Positions 13,433 to 61,637 of a stretch of DNA of 64,000 nt are shown here, piece by piece (position 1 is the first letter of the stretch; each line of letters begins with the position of its first letter). The notes under the pieces were generated by a model that did no database searches, was not told the origin of the DNA, and saw only the letters and a list, made by a program, of their open reading frames with translations. The DNA lies in the IMG/VR virus record IMGVR_UViG_2724679236_000008. The stretch is one strand, 5' to 3'. Origin of the DNA: a virus (lineage: Duplodnaviria > Heunggongvirae > Uroviricota > Caudoviricetes). Position numbers and translations under genes: made by a program.

Positions 13433-13781
13433 GTTGTAACCCTTGAATATCAACCACAGAAAGCTCGTCTTTGTAGAAAAAGGCCAGGTTGTGGCACCCC
13501 CTCGTTTGAGCGTATGAGCTGGGACCAATTTCGTTCTTCCAGACAAATGGCTTCAAATCCGTACGGCGAAGCATAAAAACGCGATTTGTTCCGCTCTGAT
13601 TCCCAATGAGGCAAAAGCCTTCTTTCACCTTGATAGCCTGCAAGTTGTCGAGTTCACCGCTGGTTACACGGCTATCGAACTCCTTGCGGCTTATTAGCTC
13701 CATCTGCATCTGACGACTCCAAACAAATGCCCATTGAAGGGCGATGGCTGAATGGTACCGAAAACACTGCATAAAAAACAA
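13425..13781 (-). CDS. hypothetical protein upstream of rdgC-like gene (118 aa)
   Basis: ORF track; 8-nt overlap with downstream gene start; operator 13781-13797 sits at its 5' end. Confidence 0.45.
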
Positions 13782-13797
13782 TATTTATTAGAGCAAT
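13781..13797. promoter_or_regulatory. C1-type operator variant ATATTTATTAGAGCAAT
   Basis: 1 mismatch to AAATTTATTAGAGCAAT; located in divergent intergenic region (13782-13878). Confidence 0.45.
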
Positions 13798-13878
13798 TTT
13801 GTAATAAGAAAACACCATTAAGACCACAAATAACATAAGGTAAAATAACGAAAATTAGAGCAAATAATTGGTGATGAC

Positions 13879-14163
13879 GTGGCAAGTATTGCAACAAAAG
13901 ACAGCATTTGTTCGGGGCACGGAGGATTCCCATCCAGGCCTCCTGTAGAAAGTGAACCACTACTTAAAGTCAACGGAGTCGAAGTGTTAGTTGATGGTAA
14001 GCAATATGCACAGCATACCGATGGAAACAGTACGCACGGTGGGCAAGCTATATCAACCAGGGCATGGTTTACCGTCAATGGTAAAGGGGTCGTATGCGTT
14101 GGTGACCCTGTTTCATGCGGCTCTACCGTAGCGTCAGGAGACGGCCTGGTTCAGGTAAGTTAG
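13879..14163 (+). CDS. PAAR-like spike-tip protein (94 aa, GTG start)
   Basis: Cys/His pattern SICSGHGG...VNGVEVLVDGKQYAQHTDGNSTHGG...VNGKGVVCVGDPVSCGSTVASGDG typical of PAAR domains. Confidence 0.55.
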   Translation: MASIATKDSICSGHGGFPSRPPVESEPLLKVNGVEVLVDGKQYAQHTDGNSTHGGQAISTRAWFTVNGKGVVCVGDPVSCGSTVASGDGLVQVS

Positions 14164-14171
14164 GAGATATC

Positions 14172-14960
14172 ATGCTGGAAAAAGACTACCAGTTATCCGC
14201 ATATAAAAAATTGGCCGCAGCCGGTGGGATGAAAACACCTGGTGCCATAACATCGGCACGAAACAGTGCTAACACGGCAAAACAGCTTGCAGAAGAATTG
14301 ATCGGATTAATTTTGGATACAATTGTCTATCCCGACACTATTACCAGCTATGTTTCAACGATCAGAACAACCACAACCGGCTTAACGAACATTGGAGAAC
14401 TGGCAACTAAGCACGCGGACCTGTTGGCTGGTTATGCAGATCTGTCAATGCTGCTTCAACTCGATATTGGTTGGGATGTTTACTGCCGTGCTAATGAGCG
14501 AGAAGTATCAGAACTGCCGATCTCTATTGCCATTGGTGATGTGACTATTACTAAATCGCTTGAGGATGCTGTAAACGCGCTTAATACATCAAGTTTAGTC
14601 GCTGCTATGGGGGAGATTAACCAGACCCTTAACACTGGCTCAGGAAGCTCGTCAGGCTCTGGTTCAGGCGGCGGCACTGCCACTCCCCCACCAGCACTAA
14701 CAGAAGAGCAAATTGAATCTCTGAAAGTAGCAACTGAACAGTTTGGGGTTGTTTTCAACCAGACAACAGCGCCCACAACTGCGTTACAACAGCAGTATGA
14801 ACGAGCGAATGAAAGCGCCAACGTAGCCATAACTGCTTATAACCATGCTATCGGTACCGCGCTTGCGGAAGCATCAGCAAATAAGGCCAGCACAGCCAGC
14901 GCAGTCGCCGCTTTGGTTCCTGATTCTGTTCTTGATGAATTAAACAAAGCGGCACAGTAA
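14172..14960 (+). CDS. hypothetical protein with Gly/Ser-rich linker (262 aa from ATG 14172)
   Basis: SD TAGGAG 6 nt upstream of ATG 14172; internal GSGSSSGSGSGGG low-complexity linker. Confidence 0.5.
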   Translation: MLEKDYQLSAYKKLAAAGGMKTPGAITSARNSANTAKQLAEELIGLILDTIVYPDTITSYVSTIRTTTTGLTNIGELATKHADLLAGYADLSMLLQLDIGWDVYCRANEREVSELPISIAIGDVTITKSLEDAVNALNTSSLVAAMGEINQTLNTGSGSSSGSGSGGGTATPPPALTEEQIESLKVATEQFGVVFNQTTAPTTALQQQYERANESANVAITAYNHAIGTALAEASANKASTASAVAALVPDSVLDELNKAAQ

Positions 14961-14999
14961 CAAAGGACTTCATTGATAATTTTTCTTCAGGAGGAAGAC

Positions 15000-15422
15000 A
15001 TGTCATTCTTTTCTACGTTAAAAACAGCTTTGTCTTTGAAGGAGAAACTTGCTGCTACTGGTGTTCTTGTTCTGATTTGCGCACTTGTTGGTGCTGGGTT
15101 TGCATGGGAACGTCATCAGCTAAAGCAAGCCTTAGAGAAAGTTAACCGCCTCGATCAGGCTGTTAAGGAACGTGATAAGTCAATCAGCGAGCTTAATCAG
15201 ACCATTGAGACGATGAACAAAGCGGATCAACATTTTCACAGCCAGGAAGTGAAAAATGAATCAGAACAAGCCAAGTATGCTGACAGGCAAATGGAGCGAA
15301 AAGCAGAAGTTCAGAAACAACTGGTTGCGGCGGGTAATGTTCGCCAGCGCATTCCTGCTGACACTCAGCGGTTGCTCCGGGAGTCGATCAGCGAATTTAA
15401 CTCCGACGCCGACAAAGGTTAA
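15000..15422 (+). CDS. Rz-like inner-membrane spanin candidate: N-terminal TM helix plus periplasmic coiled coil (140 aa)
   Basis: SD AGGAGG before ATG 15000; TMD LVLICALVGAGFAW then coiled-coil-like region; embeds a lipoprotein gene in the +1 frame. Confidence 0.5.
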   Translation: MSFFSTLKTALSLKEKLAATGVLVLICALVGAGFAWERHQLKQALEKVNRLDQAVKERDKSISELNQTIETMNKADQHFHSQEVKNESEQAKYADRQMERKAEVQKQLVAAGNVRQRIPADTQRLLRESISEFNSDADKG

Positions 15423-15588
15423 CCACCCTGCCCCCAAAAGTGCGTTTATGTGCAGGATGCCAGAGTTTAGCAGTGAATATTTTGATGATCTGCCAGCGTA
15501 TATCCTCGATACAGAAACGATGCTGATGGGGATTAACAGGAAGAATCGCAACGTCAATGATTACAACCGTGCTATCAGCGGTAACTAA
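15337..15588 (+). CDS. Rz1-like outer-membrane lipoprotein spanin candidate (83 aa), overlapping the preceding gene in another frame
   Basis: Signal peptide MFASAFLLTLSG followed by lipobox Cys (LSGC), proline-rich mature N-terminus (TPTPTKVNHPAP). Confidence 0.5.
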   Translation: MFASAFLLTLSGCSGSRSANLTPTPTKVNHPAPKSAFMCRMPEFSSEYFDDLPAYILDTETMLMGINRKNRNVNDYNRAISGN

Positions 15589-15599
15589 AAGGGATTTTT

Positions 15600-15992
15600 A
15601 TGTCTGATAAAGTAACAGTTAAGCAAACTATCAACAAAGCGACTTCAATCTACAAAATTGAGCAAATCACTGTTGGCAAGCCAGGATCTGAACAATACCG
15701 TCATGCTTTCGAGCTTGCCGATCAGCTTGGTTTAAAACACCCGGATTGCATCGAGCATGTATTTCCTACCTATGCTGATGAGCAATGTACTCATGTTCTT
15801 ACCGAAGAGGATTTTTTCAGCACTGAAGAACGAGAAGGCGTTGATCGCTGCATTGGTGTGATTTGTTCTTCGGTAAGTGATGAGTTATTCCCTAATGTGC
15901 CTGAATATGGTGGTATTGGATACCAATTCCTGTACGAGGGCGATGAGCTTAAATGCTATGAACATGGTCTTCTCATCGAAAGCGTAGAATAA
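15600..15992 (+). CDS. hypothetical protein upstream of repA (P1 UpfA-position, 130 aa)
   Basis: ORF track; position relative to oriR/repA. Confidence 0.5.
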   Translation: MSDKVTVKQTINKATSIYKIEQITVGKPGSEQYRHAFELADQLGLKHPDCIEHVFPTYADEQCTHVLTEEDFFSTEEREGVDRCIGVICSSVSDELFPNVPEYGGIGYQFLYEGDELKCYEHGLLIESVE

Positions 15993-16032
15993 TACCCTTC
16001 CTTCCAACCGGCTATGTTGGCCGGTTTTTCAC

Positions 16033-16110
16033 TTATCCACATTATCCACTGGGTAGATCCAATAATTAGGTCCATACAGATCCCAATTAGATCCATATAG
16101 ATCCCTGATC
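16033..16110. promoter_or_regulatory. plasmid origin core: two tandem DnaA boxes (TTATCCACA, TTATCCACT) and five GATC-containing heptamer repeats
   Basis: DnaA boxes at 16033-16050; GATC at 16056, 16079, 16090, 16100, 16107 in phased agATCC repeats; matches P1 oriR layout. Confidence 0.7.
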
Positions 16111-16149
16111 GTTGCAGGCCGCGCCACGTCTGGTTTAGAAGTGTATCGC

Positions 16150-16252
16150 GATGTGTGCTGGAGGGAAAATGATGTGTGCTGGAGGGATAAAAATGTGTGC
16201 TGACGGGTTGCTAATGTGTGCTGGTGGGATATAGGATGTGTGCTGACGGGAA
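16150..16252. repeat. incC-type iterons: five direct 19-bp repeats (GATGTGTGCTGGAGGGAAA family)
   Basis: Five phased copies of ATGTGTGCTGg/aNGGG directly upstream of repA. Confidence 0.8.
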
Positions 16253-16309
16253 AGCCTGGGTAGTTATCACCACTTATAAAAACTATCCACATAATTCGGA
16301 AAAAGTAAT

Positions 16310-17170
16310 ATGAATCAATCATTTATCTCCGATATTCTTTACGCAGACATTGAAAGTAAGGCAAAAGAACTAACAGTTAATTCAAACAACACTGTGCAGC
16401 CTGTAGCGTTGATGCGCTTGGGGGTATTCGTTCCTAAGCCATCAAAGAGCAAAGGAGAAAGTAAAGAGATTGATGCCACCAAAGCGTTTTCCCAGCTGGA
16501 GATAGCTAAAGCCGAGGGTTACGATGATATTAAAATCACCGGTCCTCGACTCGATATGGATACTGATTTCAAAACGTGGATCGGTGTCATCTACGCGTTC
16601 AGCAAATACGGCTTGTCCTCAAACACCATCCAGTTATCGTTTCAGGAATTCGCTAAAGCCTGTGGTTTCCCCTCAAAACGTCTGGATGCGAAACTGCGTT
16701 TAACCATTCATGAATCACTTGGACGCTTGCGTAACAAGGGTATCGCTTTTAAGCGCGGAAAAGATGCTAAAGGCGGCTATCAGACTGGTCTGCTGAAGGT
16801 CGGGCGTTTTGATGCTGACCTTGATCTGATAGAGCTGGAGGCTGATTCGAAGCTGTGGGAGCTGTTCCAGCTTGATTATCGCGTTCTGTTGCAACACCAC
16901 GCCTTGCGTGCCCTTCCGAAGAAAGAAGCTGCACAAGCTATTTACACTTTCATCGAAAGCCTTCCGCAGAACCCGTTGCCGCTATCGTTCGCGCGAATCC
17001 GTGAGCGCCTGGCTTTGCAGTCAGCTGTTGGCGAGCAAAACCGTATCATTAAGAAAGCGATAGAACAGCTTAAAACAATCGGCTATCTCGACTGTTCAAT
17101 TGAGAAGAAAGGCCGGGAAAGTTTTGTAATCGTCCATTCTCGCAATCCAAAGCTGAAACTCCCCGAATAA
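16310..17170 (+). CDS. repA: plasmid replication initiator RepA (286 aa)
   Basis: Flanked by iteron arrays on both sides and preceded by DnaA boxes; size and context of P1-type RepA. Confidence 0.9.
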   Translation: MNQSFISDILYADIESKAKELTVNSNNTVQPVALMRLGVFVPKPSKSKGESKEIDATKAFSQLEIAKAEGYDDIKITGPRLDMDTDFKTWIGVIYAFSKYGLSSNTIQLSFQEFAKACGFPSKRLDAKLRLTIHESLGRLRNKGIAFKRGKDAKGGYQTGLLKVGRFDADLDLIELEADSKLWELFQLDYRVLLQHHALRALPKKEAAQAIYTFIESLPQNPLPLSFARIRERLALQSAVGEQNRIIKKAIEQLKTIGYLDCSIEKKGRESFVIVHSRNPKLKLPE

Positions 17171-17458
17171 GTGTGTGCTGGAGGGCAGCTGCATTCAAAA
17201 AATGTGTGCTGCCGGGAAGGCTTGTCCAATTTCCCGTTTTTGATGTGCGCTGGAGGGGGACGCCCCGCAGTTTGCCCAGACTTTCCCTCCAGCACACATC
17301 TATCCATCCATTTTTCCCTCCAGCGCACATGTAATTCTCTGCCTTTCCCTCCAGCACACATATTTGATACCTGCGATCCCTCCACAGCACATAATTCAAT
17401 GCGACTTCCCTCTATCGCACATTCTGAGCCTTCACCATCCCTCCAGCACACATCTAAT
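17171..17458. repeat. incA-type copy-control iterons: nine 19-bp repeats in both orientations
   Basis: GTGTGCTGGAGGG and CCCTCCAGCACACA copies spaced through 17171-17458 immediately after repA stop. Confidence 0.8.
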
Positions 17459-19929: not shown

Positions 19930-19952
19930 AACAAGTGACTTTCAATAAAATC
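19930..19952 (+). promoter_or_regulatory. late-promoter-like motif variant CAACAAGTGACtttcaaTAAAAT upstream of capsid gene
   Basis: Shares AACAA(A/G)TGA(C/T) plus downstream TA-rich hexamer with motifs at 697, 32123, 47703, 57948. Confidence 0.3.
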
Positions 19953-20002
19953 TCTTCCGAAAAGGGATTCACACAAGTGCCTTGTGTTTAAGGAAGAGTA
20001 AC

Positions 20003-44778: not shown

Positions 44779-46683
44779 TTAGTAACCTATAGCTGTCCAG
44801 TACATATTGCCGTTACCCTCACTGTTAAATTTTGTTCCGGTTCTGGATAGTGAGTTAACAGCAATGCTGTAGTCAAAACGACCATGCGCGTTAGTGATTG
44901 TTATGCTTGTACAGGCAGAGGGAAAAGCTATTGGAAATGTTAACCCTGCTCCAGCATTAGAAATATATCCCCACTGCGTAATAATTCCTGTAGAGACATC
45001 TTTATGCCAGCCATTCGCCGCTTTGAACGCGGTATTTTTAGCCTGATAACGGGAGTCAAAATTACCGTAATCTGACGGGTTAACACGCCCACTAATATTC
45101 AGTAGTTTATTACTTTGAATACTTCCACTCGTAAAGCGGAAAACATGGGCATTGTTAGCATAAACATCAAGAACACCATCGCCATTTTGCTTTAAACCAG
45201 TATCACCATCACCCAGAACAATGGAGTTACCTCCTAAAGCGTTTGCCGTTCTTATACCAAGTGCGCCGTTCAACTGGCCGCCAGATAACGGCAATGCCCC
45301 AACTTCAGCGGCAGTAGGTCTAATATGCGAACTGTAAATTACATAAACCGTTCCATCAGTCAGGCCTGTCGGTTTATTCGCTGTATAAGTTGGTGATGTA
45401 TGAATTTGTACAGTGGCATCCTTTGTATAATCCCACTGGATATTAACACCCGTGGCGTAATTACCTATTTCTACATAAATGTCATAGGTATCACCGGATG
45501 TATTCACCCATGCAAAATTAGTAAATCCTGATGATGTCCGCCGCCATAATGCACCAGTGATGCCTTTAGGGTTTCCATTGCCAGCACGTAAAACAAGTTC
45601 AGATATACCCGCCTGCTGCGGGGAACCGACATTATATCCAGCACCACCAATCAGGCTTACATAAACCACGGAACTGGCCTGTGGCATAGTTACAGTCGCC
45701 AGTTTGAACCATCCTGCACCGCCATTAAAGGATATGGTTGTTGAATTTGTTGTCCCGATGTTGCGCAGGAATAATTTTTTATCAGGAATATCTGCACCGT
45801 TCTGGTTTTTCTGCAATGCTCCAGCAGCTAACTCTACTGTTTGTTCGAGATTTAAATCTTCCGCCGTTAGTTCAATGTCTTCAGAACCATCAAACGAGAC
45901 GCCGTTGATAGTACATGCTGTCTGCAACTTGGTCGCTGTCGCTGCATTACCGGTAGTGTCTTGATTACCTTTTGTATTCACACCAGGCAAATCTATATCG
46001 GCTGAACCATCAAAGGATACACCACCTATGTTTATTGAACTTGCTAATTTCGTTGCTGTTGCTGCATTTCCTGAAAGGCTTGAAACAAACTGATGTGAGC
46101 AGTAATAACCACGTCCATTTTTAAAATCCAGAATGGTTTGAGTATTTGTACTTTCTGCTACTGGATCTGTGGCCCCCCACTTATAGGTGGCTTGACCAAC
46201 GGTATAGTCAGTAGTTGGAACAATTACGTTCAAGCCCTCCTCAGCAAATATCTTGATAGGAAATGCTCTGGCTTCAACGTAAAATACACTACACAAATCG
46301 TCATCTTTCACACTTGAAATAATCGAGTGTATAGCTCGCTCAGCAGTAGAATATATTGAGAAAAAACCAGCCGCATATGAACCGCGATCAGACCAACCGC
46401 CAGGCATAACAAACCCATTAAATTCACAATTATTCATGGCGTATCCGCCAGCTGAGGAATAAGTAGTTATCACAACTCGTGAGGCTAATTCATCGGTACT
46501 GCCTCCAGATCGGCGAAAGACTATAGGATACCACTTACCGCTTACTGCATTTGCAGGCGCTGAAAAAGTGTATTTTCGCATCCCTTTTTTATTGTCTATT
46601 TCGCTTTTGCTGTAAACGTCCAGATCTTTAGGAGTCNNNNNNNNNNAAGTCTGGCGTGCACTCCATGTGTTAGCCGTGCTCAA
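44779..46683 (-). CDS. silent alternative tail-fibre C-terminal cassette (no own start; expressed only after inversion); contains an N10 gap
   Basis: Open frame continues upstream to the cix site; N-terminus [11 protein letters not shown] identical to S residues at 42290; shares the [18 protein letters not shown]...[31 protein letters not shown] module with S. Confidence 0.6.
46637..46646. other. assembly gap (10 N)
   Basis: Literal nnnnnnnnnn in sequence, inside the inverted repeat of the invertible segment. Confidence 0.99.
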
Positions 46684-46713: not shown

Positions 46714-46739
46714 TTCTCTTAAACCAAGGTTTAGGATTG
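46714..46739. other. cix-type inversion crossover site (right), overlapping the 3' end of cin
   Basis: TTCTCTTAAACC-AA-GGTTTAGGATTG: two imperfect inverted 12-bp half-sites around a 2-bp core, same architecture as gix/hix sites. Confidence 0.55.
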
Positions 46740-47291
46740 AAATGATGACGCAGGAAACTTTTTATAAAGCGTGGAAACAGCAACATCATAGATGATTGCA
46801 ACCTGCTTACGGGGGATGCCATTCTCCAGCAATCGACGCATTTGCTGCCATGTTTCTTCCGGGTATTTAGGTCTGCGGCCTCCTATTCGACCTTCTGCGC
46901 GAGCTGCATCAAGTCCAGCGCGTGTACGTTCAACGATAAGCTCGCGTTCCATTTCTGCCAGTGCCCCCATTACGTGAAAGAAAAAGCGCCCCATTGGTGT
47001 ACTGGTGTCGATGGAGTCAGTGAGACTCCGGAAGTTAATTCCTCTGTCACGTAGCTCTTCCACCAGCACAACCAAGTGACGCATGCTGCGCCCAAGGCGA
47101 TCTAACTTCCATACGATCAGGGTGTCACCTCTGGAAAGCATACGCAAAACCTTTTTTAGCCCTGGGCGTTCAGCCTTTTTGCCGCTCGCCTTATCCTCAA
47201 AAATTAGCTCACATCCTGCGCTTTCAAGAGCGTTTCGTTGTAAAGCAGTGTTTTGTTCATTTGTTGATACGCGTACATAGCCTATTAGCAT
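46731..47291 (-). CDS. cin: Cin/Gin/Hin-family serine DNA invertase (186 aa)
   Basis: MLIGYVRVSTNEQNTALQ (catalytic Ser), resolvase/invertase catalytic domain and C-terminal HTH; adjacent to invertible tail-fibre segment. Confidence 0.9.
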   Translation of the reverse strand: MLIGYVRVSTNEQNTALQRNALESAGCELIFEDKASGKKAERPGLKKVLRMLSRGDTLIVWKLDRLGRSMRHLVVLVEELRDRGINFRSLTDSIDTSTPMGRFFFHVMGALAEMERELIVERTRAGLDAARAEGRIGGRRPKYPEETWQQMRRLLENGIPRKQVAIIYDVAVSTLYKKFPASSFQS

Positions 47292-47419: not shown

Positions 47420-47701
47420 ATGTTTGATTTCACAATAATGCTCCTCTCCATCCTTGGCGGGGTGCATTCGTTTCTGAATGGGGTTCGTGAAAAACGTTAC
47501 GAAGCGTCATGCAGGCAATTGATGGCCGAGTGTATTGCTGCCGTACTTGCAGGCTTTATAGGCATGTATTTCGCGGAATATAAGGGTATGGATGAAAGTC
47601 TTCAGAATTGCGTGACTATTATTTGCAGCATCAATAACAGGCTCATTCTTGAAAAGTTACAAAGGATTATCGATTCGTACCTCAGTAGAAATGCCTCTTA
47701 A
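47420..47701 (+). CDS. small membrane protein, holin-like (93 aa)
   Basis: Two hydrophobic helices and charged C-terminus; precedes holin/antiholin-like pair. Confidence 0.4.
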   Translation: MFDFTIMLLSILGGVHSFLNGVREKRYEASCRQLMAECIAAVLAGFIGMYFAEYKGMDESLQNCVTIICSINNRLILEKLQRIIDSYLSRNAS

Positions 47702-47702
47702 G

Positions 47703-47727
47703 CAACAAATGACCGGTTGAGAAGTTA
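47703..47727 (+). promoter_or_regulatory. late-promoter-like motif CAACAAATGACcggttgAGAAGTTA
   Basis: Same AACAAATGAC core as 697 and 32123; 40 nt upstream of GTG 47769. Confidence 0.35.
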
Positions 47728-47768
47728 CTTTGCATACCATTACCTCCTGACAACGTAGGAGGGAACTT

Positions 47769-48098
47769 GTGCTTGACACACAGGAATTAGCTCCAGTTGC
47801 TATTGCGCTCCTGCTTTCAGTAATTGGTGGGATAGGCACGTTCCTGATGGATGTCCGAGACGGTCGCCAGTCTGGCAATTTGTTGGGATTGGTTACGGAG
47901 ATCTTTGTTGCAGTGACAGCTGGCGCGGTGGCGTACCTATTGGGGCAACACGAGGGCTGGGAGTTATCAATTACGTACTTAATGGTAACGATAGCCAGCA
48001 ATAACGGTCATGAGGTGATTTCAGGGATGAAACGAGTGAATATCGATAGCATTCTGAATGTTCTTACAAGTTTGGTGAAAAAGGGAGGCGGGAAATGA
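47769..48098 (+). CDS. holin candidate (LydA-position, 109 aa, GTG start)
   Basis: SD AGGAGG 8 nt before GTG; three hydrophobic segments; lysine-rich C-terminus KKGGGK. Confidence 0.5.
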   Translation: MLDTQELAPVAIALLLSVIGGIGTFLMDVRDGRQSGNLLGLVTEIFVAVTAGAVAYLLGQHEGWELSITYLMVTIASNNGHEVISGMKRVNIDSILNVLTSLVKKGGGK

Positions 48099-48538
48099 TT
48101 GGCTGGGGTGTATGCGCTCTTGCGGCAGCCTTAGCTGATCGCTATTTGCTAAAACGCAAGGACATCACGAATTTAGAGCTTGGTGATGTGGAAATTAAAC
48201 CGGGATTTATCCGGGTGCCGTTCAAATATCGGTCTAAATTCCCGTTTTTGCGCGGTGCAACGGTCAGATATTGGATCCGTGATGTTCAGAAGCCGACGAC
48301 AGTGATTGAAGGCGAACAACGTTGCCTGACGTCGGCTGAACAGGGCGAAAACAGTGAATGGTTGTACATACCCACTGAATATATGGGTAAAGGAGAACGA
48401 CTGTGGCATTTCAACGTCATGGTTACGCACGGCGACTCGTTCATTAACCCGTTGTATCGGATTTTCCCTGTTACTCAGCAAATCCGCAGAAGTTACGTAA
48501 TAAATCTCGCACAGGATGTGTCAGATGACGAAAAATAA
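48095..48538 (+). CDS. putative antiholin/lysis regulator (LydB-position, 147 aa)
   Basis: ATGA overlap with holin gene; soluble; assignment by position. Confidence 0.4.
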   Translation: MIGWGVCALAAALADRYLLKRKDITNLELGDVEIKPGFIRVPFKYRSKFPFLRGATVRYWIRDVQKPTTVIEGEQRCLTSAEQGENSEWLYIPTEYMGKGERLWHFNVMVTHGDSFINPLYRIFPVTQQIRRSYVINLAQDVSDDEK

Positions 48539-57947: not shown

Positions 57948-57969
57948 TAACAAGTGATTTGCATTATCC
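57948..57969 (+). promoter_or_regulatory. late-promoter-like motif variant TAACAAGTGATttgcaTTATCC upstream of lyz
   Basis: AACAAGTGA core shared with the other motif copies. Confidence 0.3.
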
Positions 57970-58057
57970 TGTGCCTTCTAAAGGGATCGAGTCAGTCGGT
58001 ATTGGCTGTGAATGGGTGTTTGTCCTGGAGCGTAAAAAATTCGCTTATGAGGTCTTT

Positions 58058-58615
58058 ATGAAGGGAAAAACAGCCGCAGGAGGCGGTGCAATTTGCGCTA
58101 TCGCGGTGATGATTACCATCGTGATGGGGAATGGCAATGTGCGAACCAACCAGGCGGGGCTTGAGCTTATCGGAAACGCTGAAGGTTGCCGACGTGATCC
58201 ATACATGTGCCCGGCGGGTGTATGGACTGACGGGATTGGTAATACACACGGGGTAACGCCAGGCGTGCGAAAAACCGACCAGCAAATCGCCGCTGATTGG
58301 GAAAAGAATATCCTGTTCGCTGAACGCTGTATTAACCAGCACTTTCGGGGTAAAGACATGCCCGATAATGCCTTCAGCGCAATGACAAGCGCGGCATTCA
58401 ATATGGGATGCAATAGTTTACGGACCTACTACAGCAAAGCGCGAGGCATGCGAGTCGAAACCTCCATCCACAAGTGGGCGCAGAAAGGGGAATGGGTGAA
58501 TATGTGTAACCATCTCCCTGATTTCGTGAACAGTAACGGCGTCCCCCTGCCCGGATTAAAGATTCGCCGTGAAAAAGAACGCCAGCTTTGCCTGACGGGG
58601 CTGGTCAATGAATAA
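58058..58615 (+). CDS. lyz: endolysin (lysozyme), probable SAR-type with N-terminal signal-anchor (185 aa)
   Basis: Weakly hydrophobic Gly/Ala-rich N-terminus AAGGGAICAIAVMITIVMG followed by lysozyme motif ELIGNAEGCRRDPYMCPAGVWTDGIGNTHG; SD GAGG before ATG 58058. Confidence 0.75.
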   Translation: MKGKTAAGGGAICAIAVMITIVMGNGNVRTNQAGLELIGNAEGCRRDPYMCPAGVWTDGIGNTHGVTPGVRKTDQQIAADWEKNILFAERCINQHFRGKDMPDNAFSAMTSAAFNMGCNSLRTYYSKARGMRVETSIHKWAQKGEWVNMCNHLPDFVNSNGVPLPGLKIRREKERQLCLTGLVNE

Positions 58616-58873
58616 ACTCCGGCAGCTCCGCCGACTTTCGACAATGAAGTTATCGCTGGCGGCGATAGTTTTCGACTCGATTTTCATGGCGGTATATGTG
58701 CTCAATGAGACGTGGCCACTGGAACCGCTATTATATGCCGGGCTTCGGCTGTGCCTGACATTTTTGAGCATGGCTGCAAGATTGATGCAGCAGAAAGAAA
58801 CCGCTTCAGATTGCCCACGTCGCGCGGTGCGCAAATATATGGCACGCAGGCGAAGGCGATAATAGTTAACGAG

Positions 58874-58901
58874 AACCCCGGCAGCCGCCGGGGTTATTTT
58901 T
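58874..58901 (+). terminator. rho-independent terminator downstream of lyz
   Basis: AACCCCGGC-AGC-CGCCGGGGTT followed by ATTTTTGG. Confidence 0.55.
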
Positions 58902-58906
58902 GGTGG

Positions 58907-61637
<2,731 letters not shown>

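Follow-up and report, generated by a model that had tools for sequence, protein, structure and literature searches.

The window, meaning the whole 64,000-nucleotide (nt) stretch of Caudoviricetes DNA analyzed here (IMG/VR record IMGVR_UViG_2724679236_000008), carries at positions 15000-15588 the homologues of phage P1 ppfA and mlp. These overlapping genes of a P1-like phage-plasmid very probably (probability of roughly 0.88) encode a two-component spanin of the "overlapped" architecture, with PpfA as the inner-membrane subunit (i-spanin) and Mlp as the outer-membrane lipoprotein subunit (o-spanin). The assignment is made because of the gene architecture and the localization signals in both products. 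An original prediction, made from the letters alone, had placed an Rz/Rz1-like pair here with open reading frames (ORFs) at 15000..15422 and 15256..15588, which proved exact to the base.

As a discovery the finding is ordinary, since both the pair and the dispersal of the P1 lysis genes had already been published. Summer et al. reportedly identified P1 ppfA/mlp as Rz/Rz1 equivalents in 2007, and the pair has been catalogued since that year and is held in a curated spanin database. Building on Summer et al. (2007), Kongari et al. (2018; PMC6139136) list P1 gp064/gp063 in their Table S1 as class "ovl", the same overlapped architecture that had been proposed for the window and that every structural feature of the pair bears out.

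Window positions 14000-17200 were compared by megablast with the P1 reference NC_005856 (96.3% identity), P1 OP279344 (97.9%), and P7 (95.7%), and repA, upfB, ppfA, and upfA are annotated beneath the P1/P7 match. The spanin segment and 40-64 kb of the window match, at 100% identity, plasmid pEA4_97 of Escherichia albertii (NZ_CP117679.1), a circular IncY P1-like phage-plasmid of 97,069 bp, in which window positions 15000-15588 are found at 95760-96348 (locus L012). The minus strand of the P1 reference is the + strand of the window. Judged by sequence, the gene pair is P1 ppfA (gp064) and mlp (gp063).

Gene structure and predicted products

The pair was compared with loci L006-L008, from P1-like elements of ~90-97 kb (Salmonella, Cronobacter, others) whose PpfA is 57-61% identical, and with L011, a ~94-kb IMG/VR element whose i-spanin is 31% identical. 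The features of the pair are as follows.

15000..15422, + strand: ppfA homologue, predicted i-spanin (inner-membrane subunit), 140 amino acids (aa), ATG start; from the ORF, P1 identity, and phrog_89
14989..14994, + strand: Shine-Dalgarno AGGAGG of ppfA; from the sequence, conserved in L006-L008
15256..15588, + strand: mlp homologue, predicted outer-membrane lipoprotein subunit (o-spanin), precursor of 110 aa, +1 frame relative to ppfA
15244..15249, + strand: Shine-Dalgarno AGGAAG of mlp, inside ppfA; AGGAGG in the divergent clade
15364-15375, + strand: Mlp lipobox LSGC, with Cys at residue 40 (codon 15373-15375)
15256..15422, + strand: dual-coding overlap of 167 nt, ppfA codons 86-140 and mlp codons 1-56

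The best 19-residue hydrophobic window of PpfA is residues 17-35 (LAATGVLVLICALVGAGFA; Kyte-Doolittle 2.35), the predicted transmembrane domain (TMD), encoded at nt 15048-15104. The predicted cytoplasmic N-terminus (residues 1-16) has a net charge of +2, and the predicted periplasmic part of ~105 residues is 36% charged. AlphaFold2 modeling from a 14-sequence family alignment, with a predicted local distance difference test (pLDDT) score of 73, gave a helix at 13-110, a linker at 111-119, and a second helix at 120-137. PpfA therefore has, by predicted topology, the single N-terminal TMD and mainly helical periplasmic domain of an i-spanin. The type II inner-membrane protein of the original prediction stands to that extent, whereas the coiled coil ascribed to its periplasmic domain is a prediction only. 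Hydrophobic residues in the first 75 periplasmic residues show a 3.5-residue periodicity above that of shuffled sequences (1.35% of 2000 reach it), which lends weak support at most because the same crude test misses lambda Rz. A cleaved, periplasmic PpfA, as in the old annotation, was rejected, as a 19-residue hydrophobic core would be long for the h-region of a Sec signal.

The start of mlp is offset by 256 nt from that of ppfA, which places it in the +1 frame, and the gene runs 166 nt beyond the ppfA stop; it thus begins inside the i-spanin gene and ends past it, in the position of an overlapped o-spanin and as had been proposed. The precursor has a basic n-region followed by the h-region VMFASAFLLTL and by the lipobox LSGC that had been picked out, with Ser at +2 and Gly at +3. 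This is the signal peptidase II lipobox without Asp at +2 that marks an o-spanin. Of the 357 open frames of 60 aa or more in a six-frame translation of the window, only 5 have a lipoprotein-signal pattern of this kind. Cleavage would leave a mature form of 71 aa, with one further Cys at mature position 27; this invariant Cys27 supplies the periplasmic cysteine that is common, not universal, among spanins. The product had also been described as proline-rich, the sole overstatement: the term fits the N-terminal mature stretch, with 4 Pro within the first 21 mature residues, concentrated in TPTPTKVNHPAP, and not the mature protein as a whole (6/71, or 8.5%).

Candidate mlp starts are ATG 15256 (39-aa signal), ATG 15277 (32 aa), TTG 15325 (16 aa, aligning with the P2 LysC start), and ATG 15337 (12 aa, lacking a basic n-region). 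ATG 15256 alone has a Shine-Dalgarno sequence and is conserved in all lineages; 3 of 5 lineages have a start at the position equivalent to TTG 15325. The choice has no effect on interpretation because all candidates yield the same mature lipoprotein.

LipoP had been suggested as a check on the lipoprotein, and for P1 this had already been done, since Kongari et al. (2018; PMC6139136) give a LipoP cleavage site at position 39 for the P1 o-spanin. The same table gives gp064 as 140 aa with 104 periplasmic residues, no periplasmic Cys, and "one in TMD", and gives the o-spanin one periplasmic Cys; the Cys counts of the window PpfA and Mlp equal these, and the mature Mlp listed there is the mature sequence of the window. 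Bednarek et al. (2022; PMC9025707) and Table S1 of bioRxiv 10.64898/2025.12.28.696737 label ppfA as the o-spanin and mlp as the i-spanin, labels that are reversed, because PpfA has the TMD and Mlp the lipobox.

Coding in both frames of the overlap

In all four comparison loci (L006-L008 and L011) the +1 frame is open from the same upstream ATG behind AGGAGG and encodes a basic n-region, the h-region LLASAFLLTL, a lipobox L[S/N][G/A]C with Ser at +2, a mature form of 70-71 residues, the FMCxMP cysteine (Cys27), and a C-terminal INRKNxNVNxYNR motif. Against L006-L008, nucleotide divergence is 0.21-0.25 in the overlap and 0.40-0.42 in the ppfA-only part. The ppfA wobble positions in the overlap, which are the second codon positions of mlp, are changed in 30-38% of cases, against 54-58% outside it (Fisher p=0.006, 0.006, and 0.025), and mlp wobble positions are changed in 15-22% inside the overlap and 34-50% outside. 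The rate of evolution in the overlap is roughly half that of the coding sequence flanking it, and both frames are under purifying selection.

Gene callers implicitly take ppfA to be the only gene here and the +1-frame ORF to be open by chance; PGAP and other callers place only a 46-aa fragment after ppfA in several phage records as well as in the source plasmid. The probability that they are right is negligible, because the dual-coding constraint on the overlap and the conservation of the frame in all lineages exclude a chance ORF: the mlp frame stays open with its Shine-Dalgarno sequence, start, h-region, lipobox, Cys27, and C-terminal motif, and ppfA wobble positions are significantly constrained solely within the overlap. 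Under-calling of overlapped o-spanins is a documented artifact, with 196 o-spanins unidentified in 528 systems (PMC6139136).

The stub after ppfA is 45-52 aa in the annotations of the L006-L008 and L011 loci, several phage records, and the source plasmid. The annotation of the source plasmid, and of most among the 651 PLSDB plasmids with the locus, gives PpfA as a "hypothetical protein" and the o-spanin only as a 46-aa stub (141 nt), which MH422554 labels "Rz1". On this point the original prediction improves on the public annotation of most of the ~650 P1-like plasmids. Public collections also hold PpfA-to-Mlp fusion proteins of 193-195 aa (P0003, P0011, P0026, P0047, and P0048), with the frame switch at no fewer than 4 different points in the overlap, one of them at an A-run just before the mlp ATG. 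They come mostly from raw-read (Logan) assemblies and in a few cases from NCBI, and either sequencing errors or true mutations that inactivate the spanin in plasmid prophages could account for them.

Database matches

PpfA matches the "Rz-like spanin" family phrog_89 over profile positions 3-130 of 143 (E=7e-23) and, at 1e-5 to 4e-3, another three PHROGs of the Rz-like spanin type, and Mlp matches phrog_30284 ("Rz-like spanin"; E=2e-76, profile 1-110 of 110) with phrog_456 as a second Rz-like match (E=4e-5). The phrog_89 and phrog_30284 matches are partly circular, as P1-like proteins are probably members of these PHROGs. For Mlp, the Pfam scan gave no match and the NCBIfam LysC model (NF038368) scored 14.3 bits against a cutoff of 27. 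PDB sequence searches gave no meaningful match. An exhaustive HMMER search with PpfA (1.84 billion representatives) returned only P1-like proteins and the L011 protein, the sole full-length distant match. It found no relative inside a conventional lysis cassette, and the L011 relative sits in the same PAAR-upfB context. On the strength of these searches, the i-spanin family PpfA is confined to P1-like elements.

Proposed mechanism and weighing of the assignment

For PpfA and Mlp, the membrane topology, the lipidation, the formation of a complex, the fusion of membranes, and the time of expression are inferred by analogy with lambda Rz/Rz1. PpfA would insert in the inner membrane N-in/C-out via its single TMD (residues 17-35) and project its helix-linker-helix domain of ~105 residues into the periplasm. 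Mlp would be exported, lipidated on Cys40, cleaved by signal peptidase II, and sorted by the Lol system to the inner leaflet of the outer membrane, a destination expected because residue +2 is Ser and not Asp; it would probably form a disulfide dimer through the single conserved mature Cys27. The C-terminal parts of PpfA and Mlp may then bind to form a periplasm-spanning bridge that is restrained by the peptidoglycan mesh. Upon triggering of the LydA-type holin, the signal-anchor-release (SAR) endolysin Lyz would be released and activated and the murein degraded, and the freed bridges would collapse and fuse the inner membrane with the outer, which would open the last barrier to the release of virions.

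Several observations weigh against a functional spanin pair. PpfA, unlike lambda Rz, has no Cys outside its TMD, and it is not significantly similar to established i-spanins: comparison with P2 LysB gave E=27 (BLASTP) and an hhalign probability of 1%, comparison with lambda Rz gave E=0.22 and 2%, the NCBIfam LysB model (TIGR03495) scored 18.5 bits (cutoff 92.75), and the Pfam scan returned only sub-threshold coiled-coil-type matches, none of them at E<=1 to a spanin family. An AlphaFold2 model of the natural fusion P0003, taken as a surrogate for the i-spanin/o-spanin complex, had a pLDDT of 34-51 over the Mlp part, too low to speak for or against a contact. The 39-residue Mlp signal that follows from the conserved ATG exceeds the positional window of PROSITE, and Kongari et al. 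(PMC6139136) flag the P1 o-spanin as "Too long signal sequence" and "No hit by Prosite"; under a re-implemented PROSITE-type rule, Mlp departs in the position of its Cys only. The pattern search of the window found no perfect match to an Lpa-type late promoter upstream of the operon, and Bednarek et al. (2022; PMC9025707) describe the spanin genes as lying in an unlinked operon and the P1 spanin function as unverified. By dCas12a CRISPR interference (CRISPRi), Piya et al. (2023; PMC10695390) obtained efficiencies of plating of 0.24/0.19 for mlp and 1.3/1.2 for ppfA, making both non-essential for plaques, along with upfB, upfC, and upfA, while lyz and lambda Rz were essential in the same study.

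Non-essentiality of the whole operon beside an essential lyz would also suit genuine spanin-type genes that are redundant or largely dispensable for P1 lysis, another route or mechanical shear taking their place and the genes being retained for particular hosts or conditions. The statement of Bednarek et al. (PMC9025707) that spanins are not essential in shaken laboratory cultures points the same way, as do the many database frameshift fusions, which would inactivate both subunits. We consider such dispensability improbable: purifying selection acts on both frames across lineages down to 31% identity, and mlp and ppfA are, with upfC, among the 21 "extremely conserved" genes in 77 P1-like phage-plasmids (PMC9603915). 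Moreover, CRISPRi knock-down is incomplete, plaque assays are a weak read-out for spanin defects, and most of the fusions, being from raw-read assemblies, may be sequencing errors.

That Mlp is instead a lysogenic-conversion or superinfection-exclusion lipoprotein (compare T5 Llp and lambda Bor), with PpfA an unrelated membrane or periplasmic protein and the overlap a result of genome compaction, we regard as very improbable. The genes do adjoin the plasmid replicon and not the lysis genes, lack a canonical late promoter (P1 annotates only the predicted sigma-70 promoters P1ppfA and P2ppfA), are non-essential by CRISPRi, and were originally named "membrane lipoprotein precursor" (mlp) and "possible periplasmic function" (ppfA). 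However, a strictly conserved type II helical membrane protein with a +1-frame outer-membrane lipoprotein is the signature of a spanin, and no exclusion lipoprotein is known to be paired in this way; the P2 o-spanin LysC is a homologue of Mlp; and both PpfA and Mlp have multiple Rz-like PHROG matches. Lytic-phase expression would be argued by the first gene of the operon, which encodes a PAAR protein and putative virion component, and transcription with no signal at 10 min and a weak, non-significant rise at 20 min resembles that of lyz and lydA. A two-component spanin is thus the reading we retain.

Presumed operon and its expression

The genes upfC-upfB-ppfA-mlp-upfA are tightly packed on one strand and adjoin the plasmid replicon, with ppfA and mlp as third and fourth genes. 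The features around the pair are as follows.

13879..14163, + strand: upfC homologue encoding a PAAR-motif protein, gene 1 of the presumed operon; phrog_281, E=2e-30, and P1 annotation
14115..14960, + strand: upfB homologue, function unknown, gene 2 of the presumed operon; phrog_1559, E=1e-137, and P1 annotation
15600..15992, + strand: upfA homologue, function unknown, at the end of the presumed operon; phrog_1453, E=4e-61, and P1 annotation
16006..16026, + strand: terminator-like hairpin (9-bp stem, 5 GC pairs), 16006..16035 with its T-run, directly after upfA and before oriR

The PAAR gene upfC and upfB also precede the spanin pair in L006-L008 and L011. From its annotated 31% identity to T4 ORF 5.4, the upfC product is presumably a virion (tail-spike tip) component, and such a gene at the head of the operon would argue for lytic-phase expression. 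The gene 3' of mlp varies: P1-type elements have upfA there, and L006 (4600-4953) and L007 (4600-4959) have a Gp49-family (PF13876) gene, which in L007 is followed by a further gene of 129 aa; a 129-aa gene comes directly after mlp in L008. The L011 ORF 6753-7226 has the same Gp49-like C-terminus, and the E. albertii protein P0077 is an Mlp-Gp49 fusion. In phage-plasmid JL22, upfA is the insertion site of blaCTX-M-55 (PMC9603915). Between upfA and repA, at ~16150-16250, there are five tandemly spaced ATGTGTGCTGgaGGG-type repeats, which correspond to the RepA iterons of P1 incC/oriR.

The late-promoter pattern AAGTnAnTT-N4-TAnnnT, derived from the annotated P1 LPlyz and LPdar, is matched perfectly at 4 sites of the window, where 0.18 are expected. 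All four are on the + strand: LPdar itself (47722), LPlyz itself (57952), and two more at 19933 and 40387. The match at 19933-19951 (+) reads AAGTGACTT-TCAA-TAAAAT and lies 31 nt upstream of a 575-aa ORF (19982..21709), and that at 40387-40405 (+) reads AAGTTACTT-CTCT-TACAAT. The best candidate near the operon, at 13828, has 6/8 box positions. A sigma-70-like TTAAGA-17-TAAAAT is located at 13818-13846, ~20 nt from the C1 operator Odmt (13781-13797), and in the divergent lineages, too, the PAAR gene is preceded by a -10-like hexamer and an operator-like site. The predicted P1ppfA and P2ppfA of the P1 record are given little weight because they are not conserved in the divergent clade.

In RNA-seq data of a 2025 preprint, ppfA, mlp, and upfB had log2 fold changes of 0 at 10 min and +3.1, +1.5, and +4.0, respectively, at 20 min, compared with 0 and +3.2 for lyz, 0 and +1.5 for lydA, and +4.7 and +7.7 for the early gene ssb. 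The pattern of ppfA, mlp, and upfB resembles that of lyz and lydA, unlike that of early genes, although the late values are not significant, have no adjusted p-values, and are too weak for the operon to be timed from them. The five genes probably form a single operon, transcribed from upstream of upfC and expressed in the lytic phase.

It is also conceivable, though unlikely, that the operon stands outside the Lpa late regulon and that the spanins are made early or under repressor control and are pre-positioned, with the unusually long, lineage-conserved 39-residue signal modulating the timing of export. The idea arises because the operon is without the late-promoter signature that precedes the holin and endolysin operons and is presumably co-transcribed with the PAAR gene out of an intergenic region in which the C1 operator Odmt also lies. 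Early or leaky synthesis would in principle be harmless, since in the lambda model Rz/Rz1 spanin complexes are inert until the murein is degraded. If true, it would amount to an uncoupled mode of lysis-gene regulation.

Dispersed lysis loci

The lysis genes of the window fall into three loci, as the original prediction had it: the spanin pair (15000..15588) and two others, with the following features.

47420..48538, + strand: second lysis locus (lydC, LPdar, lydA, lydB)
47420..47701, + strand: lydC, holin PHROG (1e-39)
47722..47740, + strand: late promoter LPdar
47769..48098, + strand: holin gene lydA (PHROG, 4e-49)
48095..48538, + strand: antiholin gene lydB (PHROG, 9e-84)
57952..58927, + strand: third lysis locus (LPlyz, lyz, lydD, lydE)
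57952..57970, + strand: late promoter LPlyz
58058..58615, + strand: SAR-endolysin gene lyz (endolysin PHROG, 5e-68)
58608..58862, + strand: lydD (PHROG, 9e-59)
58712..58927, + strand: lydE

The holin locus lies 31.8-32.2 kb from the spanin pair and the endolysin locus 42.5 kb, in agreement with the ~32 kb and 43 kb first estimated, and these distances are the shorter arcs of the 97,069-bp circular plasmid. The pair thus lies away from a holin-endolysin cassette, the usual but not defining location of spanin genes. Dispersal of the lysis genes is a textbook oddity of P1. The three dispersed loci are the known P1 organization (PMC9025707).

Near the second locus, a run of 10 N at 46637-46646 falls inside a 634-aa tail-fiber-like ORF (44779..46683, - strand), just upstream of the cin invertase gene (46731..47291), and marks sequence, close to the C-segment boundary, that is masked or unresolved.

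Comparison with known spanins

P1 and P7, whose PpfA/Mlp pairs are identical, have the same locus and the same synteny (upfC-upfB-ppfA-mlp-upfA-oriR-repA) as the window. The window PpfA differs from that of P1 at 8/140 residues (94% identical), and the mature part of Mlp is identical, with 3 substitutions in the signal peptide. The differences are allelic only, and the exact allele of the window is that of pEA4_97.

P2 LysB/LysC has the same overlapped +1 architecture, with an overlap of 146 nt (167 nt here) and an i-spanin of similar size (141 aa for LysB, 140 aa for PpfA). Mlp is 37% identical to LysC over 68 aa (BLASTP, pairwise E=4e-8), and the alignment covers the signal peptide, the lipobox, the N-terminal Pro-rich stretch, and the Cys-x-Met-Pro motif. 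Mlp is a distant relative of LysC and not an equivalog, as it has BLASTP homology without reaching the NCBIfam cutoff. LysC has four extra cysteines and a 20-residue signal, whereas Mlp has one cysteine and a signal of 39 residues, and LysB has two periplasmic cysteines whereas PpfA has none. LysB/LysC directly follow the holin, endolysin, and lysA genes in one cassette, while PpfA/Mlp lie 32-43 kb from theirs.

Lambda Rz, like PpfA, is an i-spanin with a type II TMD and a helix-linker-helix domain, and Rz1, like Mlp, is a lipoprotein o-spanin of the outer membrane, encoded in the +1 frame. The periplasmic parts are comparable in total, with 131 + 41 residues for Rz/Rz1 and ~105 + 71 for PpfA/Mlp. 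Rz1 is wholly embedded in Rz, whereas Mlp extends beyond ppfA; Rz1 is 24% proline, and mature Mlp 8.5%. Rz/Rz1 are the last genes of the S-R-Rz cassette. BLASTP of Mlp against Rz1 (E=0.007) aligned the signal peptide and Pro stretch only, which is not significant homology. BLASTP and hhalign both aligned PpfA residues 108-118 (~15321-15353) with Rz ~84-95 in a short "VAAGxxRxxI" stretch at the predicted hinge, which may be left over from a common ancestor or may have arisen by convergence as a hinge motif.

In T4, also a well-studied myovirus, the spanin genes are likewise not beside the endolysin and holin genes, so that dispersal of lysis genes is not unique to P1. T4 PseT.3/PseT.2 is a two-component spanin whose genes do not overlap, the example of the "separated" architecture (PMC6139136).

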